Shown here: positions 29,801 to 38,548 of the stretch, piece by piece
Layout of the letters: the number at the start of each line of letters is the position of its first letter
How positions within the stretch are numbered: the first letter of the stretch is position 1
Program-made: the position numbers and the translations under genes
Assembly: GCA_963514005.1 (NCBI GenBank)
Contig: OY740805.1
Span: forward strand, 42,036,001-42,100,000
From: Raja brachyura
Lineage: Eukaryota
Length of the DNA stretch: 64,000 bases
Direction of reading: 5' to 3'
Notes under the pieces: generated by a model
The model's input: only the letters and a program-made list of their open reading frames with translations
Told to the model about the DNA's origin: nothing
Database searches by the model: none

Positions 29801-32334
29801 CTTAAGACAGTGGAATTGATTGTAGACTTTAGGAGAGCTCCCACTCCCCTCGCCCCACTCACCATCAACAACACCACAGTCACATCTGTGAAGTATTTTA
29901 AGTTCCTGGGAACCATCATCTCCAAGGACCTTAAGTGGGGGGCTGCCATCGACTCCACAGTCAAAAAGGCACAACAGATGATTTACTTCCTACGGCAGCT
30001 GAGGAAGCACAATCTGCCACAGGCAATGAAGGTCCAATTCTACACGGCCATCGTAGTCTGTCCTCATCTTCTCCATCATGGTCTGGTTTGGCTCAGCCAC
30101 CAAGTACGACATGTGGAGGCTGCAGCGAATCATCCGATCAGCAGAGAAGGTTCTTGGCTGTAACCTTCCCTCCATTGATAAACTGTACACTGCAAGGGCC
30201 AGGAAGCGAGTGGGCAGGATCATCTCTGACCCCTCTCACCCTGGCCACAAACTCTTTGAATCATTTCCCTCTGGAAGGCGACTACGGACAGTTTTTATCC
30301 ACGTTGCTCTACTCAACAACCAAAAATCTGTCGCCTTCTCCCTTCGATCTGGTATTTTTGTTGGTTCACATGCTTGATCAATGGTGTTTTATCATTAATA
30401 TTTTATTATTATTAATGTTTAGTGTTTTCTGAGATTCATAACTGTCACTGTCATGTTGTTATTTGTTGGCGGAGCACCAAGGCAAATTCCTTGTATGTGA
30501 ATACTTGGCCAATAAACTTACTTACTTACTTAGATTCCTAACTTACTGAACAACAAACATCTTGAACCCTGCACAATTGCTGTGCTAACAATCTGAGTTT
30601 AGCAAAAAGCATTTGGGCCAGAGAAGTCAACAGGCCTTTGGCTTGGAAAGTGAATATTCATCACAGTGTGTGTGCATATGTGTGTGAATGAGTGTGTGTA
30701 TGTGTGTGAGATTGTATGCGTGTGAATTAGTGTGTGTATGTGTAAATTAGTGTGTGTATGCGTGTGTGTGTGTATGTGTGTTTGTATGTATCTGTGTTTG
30801 TGTGTGTGAATGAGTGTGTGTGAGTGTGTGTGTGAATGAGTGTGTGTATGTGACTATGTGTGAATGAGTGTCTGTGTATTTGTGTGTGTGAATGAGTGTC
30901 TGTGTATTTGTGTGTGTATGTGTGAATGAATGTGTGGGTGTATGTGTGTGTGTGGGTGTATGTGTGTGTGAATGAGTATGTGTGTGCGAATGAGTATGTG
31001 TGTGCAAATGAGTATGTGTGTGCGAATGAGTATGTGTGTGCGAATGAGTGTGTGTGTGTGAATGAGTGTGTGTGTGCGAATGAGTGTGTGCGAATGAGTG
31101 TGTGTGCGAATGAGTGTGTGTGCGAATGAGTGTGTGTGTGAATGAGTATGTGTGTGCGAATGAGTGTGTGTGTGCGAATGAGTGTGTGTGTGCGAATGAG
31201 TGTGTGTGTGTGAATGAGTATGTGTGTGCGAATGAGTGTGTGTGCGAATGAGTGTGTGTGCGAATGAGTGTGTGTGCGAATGAGTGTGTGTGCGAATGAG
31301 TATGTGTGTGCGAATGAGTATGTGTGTGCGAATGAGTATGTGTGTGCGAATGAGTGTGTGTGAATGAGTATGTGTGTGTGAATATATGTGTGTGTGTGTG
31401 TGTGTGTGTGAATGTGGGTGGGTGGGTCTCTATGTAGATACACACACACACACACACATATGTAAGGTATTTTCCTGCACCTTCCCCAGTCTCTTTCTAC
31501 GGAGGGAGCTGAGGGAAGCATGAGAATGAAGAAGTGTCCAGACCCTAGACGTGTTCTGTCATTTCCTTACACATGTGTTCCCTGACCCGCGGACTTACTT
31601 CAGCAGTTTGTTTTTATTTCTCACCGTGCACCCGGTTCCCGTCCACTTCCACCCCAATTTGGAAACTCCGTGACAGATGTGTGTTGTCCACCCGATGTTG
31701 TTGGGGTGAAACCCCGGGCAAGGTGTCAGTTGTCCGCCCGCCTGTGCCCGAGTCTCCCCCCGACCCCCGGGGTCTCTGTGATTCTCTGCTTCTCCCCCCA
31801 GTCTCCGTCACCCTGGATGTGGAAACAGCGCATGCGCAGCTCGAGGTGTCTGAGGATCGGAAGAGGGTGAGATGCACCGGGATGGAGAGGAGTCTCCCTG
31901 ACACCGGGAAGAGGTTTACAGACTGGCAGTGTGTGCTGGGATCGGAGGGATTCACATCGGGGAGACATTACTGGGAGGTGGAGGTGGCGGGGAGTTGGTT
32001 CTGGAGTCTGGGAGTCGCCGCAGAGTCTGTGGAGAGCAAGAGATGGGTCACACTGACCCCGGAGACTGGAGTCTGGATCATCTGGCGGTGGGATGACGGG
32101 TTTGATGCATTCACCTCCCCTCGATCCCCTCTCCCCGCCCGTCCCATCCCCGGGAGGGTGGGAGTTTATCTCAGTTACGAGTCCGGGACAGTTGCATTTT
32201 ACGACGCGGACACCAAGTCCCATCTCCACACCTTCACTGGGAACACATTCACGGACAAACTTTATCCTTACTTCGGGTCTTGGGTTACGTACGACTGGAT
32301 GACAATCTGCTCCGGTTCTGTTCCGGGTGAGTAA
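10987..32334 (+). CDS. Butyrophilin/BTNL-like membrane protein, 8 coding exons (10987-11044, 12262-12609, 13725-14006, 14207-14320, 15238-15270, 18205-18231, 25112-25138, 31802-32334), 473 aa
   Basis: All introns are GT-AG and phase 1. Exon lengths 58+348+282+114+33+27+27+533 = 1422 bp form one open frame. Domain order leader-IgV-IgC-TM-short juxtamembrane exons-B30.2 is the butyrophilin architecture. Extra mini-exons could hide in N runs. Confidence 0.88.
11522..12196 (-). mobile_element. CR1 LINE 3' fragment (intronic)
   Basis: [14 protein letters not shown] and [29 protein letters not shown]. Confidence 0.9.
12262..12609 (+). CDS. BTN-like coding exon 2, IgV domain
   Basis: 348 bp. [71 protein letters not shown]| and |GTGAGT. 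Confidence 0.95.
13725..14006 (+). CDS. BTN-like coding exon 3, IgC domain
   Basis: 282 bp. [57 protein letters not shown]. Confidence 0.95.
14207..14320 (+). CDS. BTN-like coding exon 4, transmembrane
   Basis: [44 protein letters not shown]| and |GTACG. Confidence 0.9.
15238..15270 (+). CDS. BTN-like coding exon 5, juxtamembrane mini-exon
   Basis: TTTCTCCTTCCAG|...|GTAAGA, 33 bp, [11 protein letters not shown]. Confidence 0.75.
15311..15483 (+). mobile_element. tRNA-derived SINE (related copies at about 28870-29046 minus and 39120-39400 plus)
   Basis: A-box-like TGGCGC and B box GGTTCGATCC, followed by a conserved body GTCTGTGTGGAGTT..GCTCCGGTTTCCTCCCACA. Confidence 0.75.
15705..17211. 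repeat. 43-bp minisatellite, about 35 copies, expanded inside a Rex/Babar-type LINE 3' remnant (about 15490-17400)
   Basis: Unit TAGATGTGGCCCAGTCCCACACAGACCACACTCCCCACCATTG. The last unit continues into LINE coding-like sequence (..CCCACCATTGACTCCATCTACAC..). Confidence 0.93.
18205..18231 (+). CDS. BTN-like coding exon 6, mini-exon
   Basis: TTCCTTTTTAG|...|GTATGT, 27 bp, GLWTPLVES. Confidence 0.65.
18467..18882 (-). mobile_element. L2-clade LINE 3' fragment
   Basis: [51 protein letters not shown], with a (TTGAC)n tail. Confidence 0.8.
18885..23840 (+). repeat. Tandem array of polypurine (GA-rich) tracts alternating with four copies of the same CR1 3' end (about 19520, 20665, 21460, 22908)
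   Basis: All four CR1 pieces start at the same junction GAGGGCATGACATGAGAAT, and the flanking GA tracts share motifs. Confidence 0.9.
23841..24719 (+). mobile_element. Non-coding GC-rich retroposon with (ACTTG)n tail, related to 61650-62589
   Basis: Short tandem tail. Shares TTGTGCCTTCCACCACA..GCTGTGCTGGATGTTTGGG with the 62410-62465 region. Confidence 0.5.
25112..25138 (+). CDS. BTN-like coding exon 7, pre-B30.2 mini-exon
   Basis: TGTTTTCAG|...|GTAAGA, 27 bp, EWKRIRGHE, the W-basic type exon that precedes B30.2 in butyrophilins. Confidence 0.8.
25675..27180 (+). mobile_element. Degenerate CR1 LINE (endonuclease and RT fragments)
   Basis: [57 protein letters not shown]. Confidence 0.88.
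27300..28860 (-). mobile_element. Rex1/Babar-type LINE, RT region
   Basis: [55 protein letters not shown]; frameshifted. Confidence 0.9.
29055..29725 (+). mobile_element. CR1 LINE 3' fragment
   Basis: [25 protein letters not shown]... Confidence 0.85.
29745..30532 (+). mobile_element. Rex/Babar-type LINE 3' fragment with (TTAC)n tail
   Basis: [42 protein letters not shown]. Confidence 0.85.
30666..31458. repeat. TG-rich compound microsatellite (GAATGAGT(GT)n units)
   Basis: Directly visible. Confidence 0.95.
31802..32334 (+). CDS. BTN-like coding exon 8, B30.2 (PRY/SPRY) domain
   Basis: [72 protein letters not shown], open to TAA 32334. Confidence 0.93.
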
Positions 32335-32484
32335 AAGATAAGCAAACTTCCGGTCTTTGGGATGTGGGGCGTGGGGGGAGGGGGGGAGGGGGGGGGCACA
32401 GCACCCACATGAAACCTACAGACTCACAGGGAATATGTGCACCCCACAAGTCTCCAAGGTCAGGTCTAAAGGTCACATGCTATT

Positions 32485-37850: not shown

Positions 37851-37862
37851 GATGATACAGGT

Positions 37863-38548
37863 CAAACCTGTCCTGTCCATCTACCTGTCCAACTGTTTCT
37901 TAAATGATGGGATAGTGCCAGCCTCAACTACCTCCTCTGGCAGCTTGTTCCATGCACCCACCACCCTCTGTGCGAAAAGTTACCCCTCGGATTCCTGTTA
38001 AATCTTTGCCCCTTCACCATGAACCTATGTCCTCTGGTTCTCGATTCCCCTACTCTGGGCAATAGACTCTGTGTATCTACCAGATCTATTCCTCTCGTGA
38101 TTTTGTACCTCTCTATAAGATCACACCTCATCCTCCTACACTCCATAGAATAGAGACCCAGCCTACTCAACCTCTCCCTGTAGCTCACACACTCTCGCCC
38201 TGGCAACATCCTCATAAATCTTTTCTGAACCCTTTCAAGCTTGACAATATCTTTCCTTTAACATGGTGCCCGGAACTGAACACAATATTCTAAATGCGGT
38301 CTCATCAACGTCTTATACAACTGCATCATGACCTCCCAACTTCTATACTCAATACTCTGATTGATGAAGGCCAAAGTGCCAAACGCCTTGTTGACCACCT
38401 TATCTACCTGCGACTCGACCTTCAAGGAACCATGCACCTGTACTCCTATACCCCTCTGCTCTGCAACACTACCCAGAGTCCCACCATTTACTGTCAAGGT
38501 CCTGGCCTTGTTCCACGTCCCAAAATCCAACACCTGACACTTCTCTGT
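37863..38548 (-). mobile_element. CR1 LINE 3' fragment
   Basis: ORFs 38258-38572 and 37928-38215 carry CR1 RT C-terminal motifs. Confidence 0.88.

Follow-up and report, generated by a model that had tools for sequence, protein, structure and literature searches.

A butyrophilin gene with a TRIM-like B30.2 exon

We analysed 64,000 nucleotides (nt) of DNA from Raja brachyura (assembly GCA_963514005.1, contig OY740805.1, positions 42,036,001 to 42,100,000 of the forward strand), hereafter the window, which holds a butyrophilin (BTN) gene and parts of two further B30.2 exons (Table 1). The gene is a complete butyrophilin: seven plus-strand exons from 10987 to 32334 join into one reading frame of 464 amino acids (aa), which runs from a signal peptide through IgV, IgC, a transmembrane segment and two short heptad exons to an in-frame C-terminal B30.2 domain (PRY-SPRY). 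Searches for RING, B-box and coiled-coil exons gave no match in the window or in the flanking segments searched, and the gene is not a TRIM, though its B30.2 exon is TRIM-like. The ectodomain clusters with proteins of Leucoraja and Rhinoraja (10 rows, support 100), and the best solved-structure matches of the B30.2 exon, copy A, are the B30.2 domains of BTN3A3 and BTN3A1 (E 1e-40).

An initial annotation of the window had described three B30.2 cassettes of TRIM type as swappable terminal exons behind one receptor, with a common acceptor and upstream intron and with differences at ligand loops. As an observation this account is confirmed in part, and its interpretation is supported in part. The exons do start at 31802 and 37590 on the plus strand and at 7535 on the minus strand, each with the same acceptor; the motifs RCTGMER/RLTGTRR/RLTWTLR, TDWQC/TLWPS/IDWPC and GSWFW/ESRLW are all present as quoted; and copy A (31802) is the sole intact one, with Pfam PRY and SPRY, while copy B has PRY alone. 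A common upstream intron exists for A and B (about 330 nt at 78%), but the match of copy C is limited to the last 53 nt, and copy C does not lie behind the receptor at all: it lies on the other strand, 3.4 kb before the start codon, and the DNA upstream of it best fits the tails of class-B butyrophilins (83-86% over 118-138 nt; the classes are those of the ectodomain tree below). Sharing the acceptor is nothing special to the three copies, as all 50 of 50 TRIM-linked exons fetched from the genome carry part of the same intron end. The annotation had missed two elements, the 27-nt linker exon (35833-35859) and the splice donor at the stop of exon A. The repeat that cuts copy B recurs at 11639-12197 of the window; the breakpoint falls on the same base in four aligned paralogues and a fifth halts at the same codon, which indicates that the damage is older than the recent duplications.

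Table 1. Features of the butyrophilin locus, in positions of the window
Feature	Position	Strand	Evidence and remarks
Orphan transmembrane-exon copy with flank, segmental-duplication debris	6152..6415	+	89% to 14186-14440; recurs in paralogous blocks
B30.2 copy C, frameshifted remnant, likely class-B tail	7388..7535	-	Indels of +3, -5 and -2 nt; 3' extent hidden by N
Signal-peptide exon, class-A butyrophilin	10987..11044	+	ATG; hydrophobic leader shared with skate BTN models; GT donor, phase 1
IgV exon	12262..12609	+	Pfam V-set E 1e-11; AG/GT ends
IgC exon	13725..14006	+	Pfam PF22705 butyrophilin Ig-C E 1e-22
Transmembrane exon	14207..14320	+	In-frame hydrophobic stretch; transmembrane segment of skate BTN models alike
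Heptad exon 1, 33 nt	15238..15270	+	Identical peptide in P0047
Heptad exon 2, 27 nt	25112..25138	+	Identical peptide in P0047
Intron end and acceptor common to TRIM genes, 5' limit of homogenised block	31660..31801	+	About 140 nt; 115-171 nt in 42/50 TRIM-linked exons, 25-100 nt in 8/50, more in none
B30.2 exon A, intact	31802..32334	+	Pfam PRY and SPRY; in frame with the gene
Consensus phase-1 splice donor overlapping last codons and stop of exon A	32324..32332	+	Intron would start at 32327; use inferred
Linker exon, 27 nt, phase 1, with TGA here	35833..35859	+	Homologue of class-B penultimate exon; open in other copies; P0180, P0008, P0204
B30.2 copy B, 5' half only	37590..37850	+	2-nt deletion, duplication of about 20 nt, cut by repeat insertion after about 87 codons

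The B30.2 exon is shared between butyrophilin and TRIM families

Searching the 2.7-Gb genome with exon A gave 543 candidates, the best 150 of which are 74-86% identical to it (itself excluded) and are found mainly in the 18-42.5 Mb region of C25, the contig of the window; the candidates on C25 are interleaved with B-box exons. TRIM exons lie upstream on the same strand in 50 of 60 fetched B30.2 stretches, with the RING/B-box exon among them in 35; these 60 were drawn from the best 150 of the 543 candidates, many were picked for an upstream B-box, and they are therefore not a random sample. Chondrichthyans have a very large family of B30.2 exons, located mostly in TRIM genes, and exon A belongs to it, as the initial annotation had judged from the sequence style. 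Searches with the IgV exon matched 24 places; five of these are of class A (90-100%), and the majority of the remainder are at about 40-46%.

Ectodomains and B30.2 domains tell different histories. In a tree of shark, ray and skate ectodomains (58 rows), class A (28 rows) and classes B and C together (25 rows) each have a support of 99, and each spans sharks and rays. The B30.2 tree sorts by lineage: skate class A groups with TRIMs (95), stingray class A with TRIMs (96) and Stegostoma class A with class B (100), so that class-A and class-B domains group inside a single shark species. A 117-row tree, which leaves out unassigned exons and keeps 23 of the 50 TRIM-linked exons, agrees. Such grouping of paralogues by species in the B30.2 domain and by class in the flanking domains is the pattern of concerted evolution. 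Approximately unbiased (AU) tests on 51 rows reject a class-A clade (p 2e-86), a clade of classes A and B (p 2e-75) and one of A, B and tetrapod BTNs (p 6e-7), and on 49 rows they reject a clade of all TRIMs (p 1e-5), while a skate clade that mixes A, B and TRIM is compatible with the data (p 0.6). The BTN exons nest among TRIM exons and are united in a clade neither among themselves nor with tetrapod BTNs, which is the outcome that the initial annotation had anticipated from a genome-wide B30.2 tree.

Distances between the exons follow the same pattern. At the DNA level exon A is 85-93% identical to the 50 TRIM exons and 87-93% identical to four class-A paralogues. The proportion of synonymous differences (pS), taken from a codon set of 70 rows from which three divergent old exons, a mis-framed old exon and one containing a stop were left out, is 0.079 between class A and TRIM (250 pairs), 0.070 among TRIMs and 0.074 within class A, and the nearest TRIM is at 0.027. 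In contrast to these low values, the IgV exons of class A and class B differ at a pS of 0.73-0.75 (2 pairs). Homology with TRIM genes extends from about 140 nt before the acceptor to the stop, whereas the 3' flank of the window occurs in none of the 50 TRIM exons; the TRIM-type 3' flank accompanies 49 of the 50 TRIM exons and one class-A paralogue. When exon A is divided into thirds, the 5' and middle thirds are nearest to TRIM-linked or unassigned exons and the 3' third is nearest to BTN paralogues. The class-A-type exon with its 3' flank is also present in three class-B genes, two of which look decayed and one of which (C151) is open at all exons checked.

The class-wise ectodomains set against lineage-wise B30.2 domains, the AU rejections and the equal synonymous distances support the proposal of the initial annotation that B30.2 is a module exchanged between TRIM and BTN genes, and we consider it very probable that the exon has passed between the two families. 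Repeated gene conversion or unequal crossover is the likely cause of the near-identity of BTN and TRIM exons. The template pool would be the near-identical B30.2 exons, at least 150 in number, of a single chromosome arm; recombination within the shared block would shift loop variants from gene to gene across the TRIM and BTN families, with selection retaining new loops.

The order of events at the start is less certain. In a tree under a mixture model, a single clade (100, on a long stem) unites the expanded batoid TRIMs with classes A, B and C, of which class C is basal, and chimaera, sharks and sawfish have an older type of TRIM that stands apart from this clade (95). Because the skate TRIM domains lie inside a clade otherwise made up of BTN domains, these data tentatively suggest that the TRIM family may first have taken a butyrophilin-type B30.2; the direction is only tentative because the shark TRIM sample is thin and was drawn from one top-120 list. 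The description of the exon as TRIM-type thus stands as far as the family sits mostly in TRIM genes, and the direction that it implies may be reversed.

Two side observations concern the fate of tails in other genes. The locus C151:24266-39946 (L041-L043) combines a class-B ectodomain with open exons, a class-A-type B30.2 exon with its 3' flank and a dead second module; it is likely a hybrid gene, and C151 could represent another haplotype of the cluster on C25. In sharks, the class-A ectodomains P0129, P0155, P0157 and P0163 carry another, separately grouped type of B30.2 (100), an apparent tail swap.

Amino-acid change is concentrated on the ligand face

Across the 70 exons, 33 of 172 sites are hypervariable. 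The initial annotation had placed the differences at ligand loops, and they are indeed concentrated there: 27 of the 33 sites fall in loop windows that cover 73 of the 172 positions, and all six positions of the BTN3A1 phosphoantigen pocket are among the 33 (p 3e-5). Its proposed comparison of amino-acid and synonymous change gives an excess of amino-acid change at predicted ligand-face positions, with a proportion of nonsynonymous differences (pN) of 0.179 above a pS of 0.103 in the loops, which we drew ourselves so that the result is partly circular, and a pN of 0.045 below a pS of 0.058 in the framework. Over the whole B30.2 exon, five class-A paralogues show a pN/pS of 1.73 (codon bootstrap 1.18-2.78), as against about 0.6 (0.043/0.070) in the ectodomain of the same paralogues. 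Two properties of the data reduce the force of this result, as the loop windows were drawn after the data had been seen and the pN/pS pairs are not independent.

The pocket of BTN3A1 consists of His351, His378, Lys393, Arg412, Arg418 and Arg469 (PMC5829056). The corresponding residues of the window exon, counted along an alignment of the exon to BTN3A3 from an assumed anchor number, are W41, S68, T83, D101, R107 and G158. One of the six residues is kept, which does not fit a sensor of BTN3A1 type.

A second B30.2 module behind the gene

The splice donor seen at the end of exon A occurs in 7 of the 11 young BTN exons, as against 1 of 50 TRIM-linked exons, and a linker with a second B30.2 exon lies behind all 7 of the 7 donor-bearing BTN exons. 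In the paralogue at C25:42.338-42.377 Mb every exon is open, the linker and both B30.2 exons included, and the donor is present. Two predicted proteins of Rhinoraja, P0008 with two and P0204 with three B30.2 domains, use the same linker; internal and last domains end differently, and the linker with the B30.2 domain that follows it forms a repeated unit, open in both parts in three modules of the two models. Exons also differ in what follows them, since a poly(A) hexamer lies at most 191 nt from the stop in 48 of 50 TRIM exons and first appears at 359-4201 nt behind donor-type exons. Among the 376 proteins compared, models with Ig domains and serial B30.2 domains are also found in paddlefish, sterlet and gar. 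In the window the donor is present, but the linker carries TGA and the second domain is cut.

From these comparisons we consider it rather more probable than otherwise that the tandem once encoded a receptor with two sensors in series, which has decayed here. The tail of a class-B gene, the 27-nt exon with its B30.2 exon, would have been placed downstream of a class-A gene, and a donor that overlaps the former stop would have permitted an IgV-IgC-TM-B30.2-linker-B30.2 product. Here the nonsense codon in the linker and the insertion in the second domain would cut the product back to one B30.2 domain, of 464 aa unspliced or 468 aa with use of the donor. A reading that joins both parts, in which the BTN exon is near-identical to TRIM exons through exchange and is followed by a decayed serial module, appears on balance a good deal likelier than its competitors.

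Two further observations touch on serial domains. The predicted teleost proteins P0237, P0239 and P0241 carry between three and eight B30.2 domains in a row, joined by short linkers, and the first B30.2 exon of the paralogue at C25:42338600-42377030 has unusual substitutions in conserved motifs.

Alternative explanations

Common ancestry together with constraint on the B30.2 fold, in a family that evolves by birth and death of whole genes, could in principle produce similar exons with no ongoing exchange. Several results weigh against exchange and on the side of this explanation. A test of the pairwise homoplasy index (PHI) type was not significant (p 0.53 at all sites, 0.05 at 23 fourfold sites), and a longest-tract test, which is confounded by clustered variation, did not show discrete conversion tracts; the gene-conversion test called for in the initial annotation thus failed to bring out such tracts, and repeated exchange is deduced from trees, synonymous sites and flanks rather than from mapped tracts. 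Moreover, older butyrophilin loci (41.3-41.7 Mb; C1162) retain divergent B30.2 exons at 36-50% identity. However, BTN and TRIM exons are near-identical at synonymous and intronic sites while ectodomain distances are saturated, and the AU tests reject the class-wise clades, which largely refutes ancestry and constraint as the cause and leaves it highly improbable. As a marker of GC-biased conversion we also tried G+C content at third codon positions (GC3), which gave no signal (0.66-0.69 in young exons, 0.63-0.87 in old unconverted BTN B30.2 exons).

For the tandem, the initial annotation had proposed that one ectodomain gains alternative cytosolic sensors by splicing to mutually exclusive terminal B30.2 exons. 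The acceptors are all phase 1 and near-identical, and in the 42.34-Mb paralogue, the only place where each alternative exon is intact, an in-frame skip of the first would be possible. In the window the proposal finds no support because copies B and C are broken and cannot yield a domain; joining 25138 to 37590 would yield a 375-aa protein containing half of a B30.2 domain. A donor and a distinct 3' flank, furthermore, mark the internal exons but not the last ones, so that we regard a choice between terminal exons as improbable. Exchange could also be real and the tandem mere debris, in which a class-B tail follows a class-A gene as the result of a deletion, the donor arose by chance and the multi-B30.2 models are annotation joins. 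The neighbourhood is rich in broken duplicated pieces, and much of what can be held against a serial receptor belongs here: the second module is dead in 6 of the 7 copies of this genome; the seven copies with a donor arose by recent duplication and count as about one event; the same donor hexamer occurs in one of the 50 TRIM exons with no second module within 20 kb, so the motif can be incidental; automated models can fuse neighbouring genes at this junction, as in P0199 and P0013; and a near poly(A) hexamer is also missing at canonical class-B exons and at the intact second exon (969-1069 nt). A search by shared sequence words listed no usable RNA of this species, as no matching data set is recorded as RNA and none contains more than 0.39 of the words. 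Contigs of four runs from other species, compared with the first-exon-to-linker stretch of the paralogue, were dominated by repeats and contained no such joint among those listed, which is no evidence either way, and a single-sequence fold of P0008 (mean predicted local distance difference test, pLDDT, 38.6) was unusable. What argues against debris is that an open linker accompanies an open second domain both in one paralogue of this genome and in three modules from two Rhinoraja models, and that a similar architecture is modelled in four ray-finned fish genera, in several isoforms. We consider debris unlikely, though clearly less so than a choice between terminal exons. The serial receptor remains our preferred account; its serial step is inferred, since the copies are not independent and the models may be mis-joined.

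Surroundings of the gene

Between 41.98 and 42.44 Mb of C25, class-A and class-B butyrophilins repeatedly lie head-to-head (near 42.00, 42.04, 42.30 and 42.33 Mb); many of the class-B partners are partial or broken, and the paired layout would suit heterodimers. On the 5' side of the window gene, a G+C-rich island at 7900-8670 contains splice-donor-like sites and recurs at 93% identity before a class-B gene at C25:42.152 Mb. Self-comparison shows minisatellite arrays at 15701-17212 (spacing about 43/86 nt), within the intron after heptad exon 1, and at 2109-3655 (about 35/70 nt). Beyond the gene, a GIY-YIG-like frame (Pfam E 3e-4, below the cut-off) occurs at 40672-41229 and 42980-43783 in a repeated element, which we take to be Penelope-like. 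The stretch from 43901 to 64000 is a large inverted duplication with arms 91-98% identical (e.g., 47439-50649 and 58439-61649), whose reading frames are presumably retroelement-like and recombinase-like.

Relation to known systems and significance

Butyrophilins of the BTN1A1/BTN2A/BTN3A type have a defined architecture (PMC8813856, PMC4046983), are present in cartilaginous fish (PMC12841164) and arose by domain shuffling (PMC11788884). The window gene resembles them in its signal peptide, IgV, IgC, transmembrane segment, short heptads and B30.2. Its B30.2 domain differs in being far nearer to TRIMs of the same genome (75-85% aa) than to any tetrapod BTN, keeps one of six phosphoantigen-pocket residues and is followed by a second B30.2 module.

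In zebrafish, finTRIM and NLR genes have undergone B30.2 shuffling and conversion across groups (PMC2657112, 10.1101/027151). The skate case shares with them B30.2 domains homogenised across groups with otherwise distinct domains, positive selection on loops, exon shuffling between TRIM genes and a further family and clustering on one chromosome arm. It differs in that the zebrafish NLR and finTRIM B30.2 domains mostly cluster apart, whereas in the skate TRIM genes are paired with a transmembrane butyrophilin, exchange between the two families appears ongoing and the exon/intron limits of the block are visible. The chicken BG region, with its hybrid genes, is likewise a butyrophilin-related cluster that adjoins TRIM genes and expands and contracts fast (PMC4046983), but BG proteins, unlike the window gene, have no B30.2 (PMC8813856).

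For the serial arrangement, the closest parallels are the database predictions XP_078272248.1 and XP_078272265.1 (Rhinoraja), XP_041090921.1 (Polyodon), XP_058870411.1 (Acipenser) and XP_069047490.1 (Lepisosteus), which have IgV-IgC, two or three B30.2 domains and short linkers. Unlike these predicted models, the window copy represents a decayed one-domain state, and the linkers of the ray-finned fish are unrelated in sequence. A literature search, mostly at the level of titles, found no paper on serial-B30.2 butyrophilins or, for elasmobranchs, on B30.2 exchange between BTN and TRIM genes; part of this ground may be covered by Suurvali, Garroway and Boudinot 2022, on recurrent B30.2 expansions in fish. 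The excerpts of PMC3137616 and PMC8813856 contain nothing bearing on the BTN-TRIM case.

The ligands of butyrophilin B30.2 domains outside mammals are an open question (PMC12841164). A wider, still speculative possibility, to which we give less than even weight, is that BTNs of sharks and rays and the TRIM family draw on one diversifying B30.2 pool that a butyrophilin donated at first, so that surface receptors for T cells keep gaining the specificities that cytosolic sensors have for pathogens, to which skates would add receptors with two or three different serial B30.2 domains switchable by the stop-overlapping donor. Serial-B30.2 receptors would be an architecture for which we found no description in the literature. 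If BTN and TRIM domains are exchanged and also diversified at just those positions that make up the human phosphoantigen pocket, elasmobranch butyrophilins would likely be variable inside-out sensors of pathogens, not fixed sensors of metabolites, and B30.2 trees would be of no use for assigning BTN orthology in elasmobranchs.

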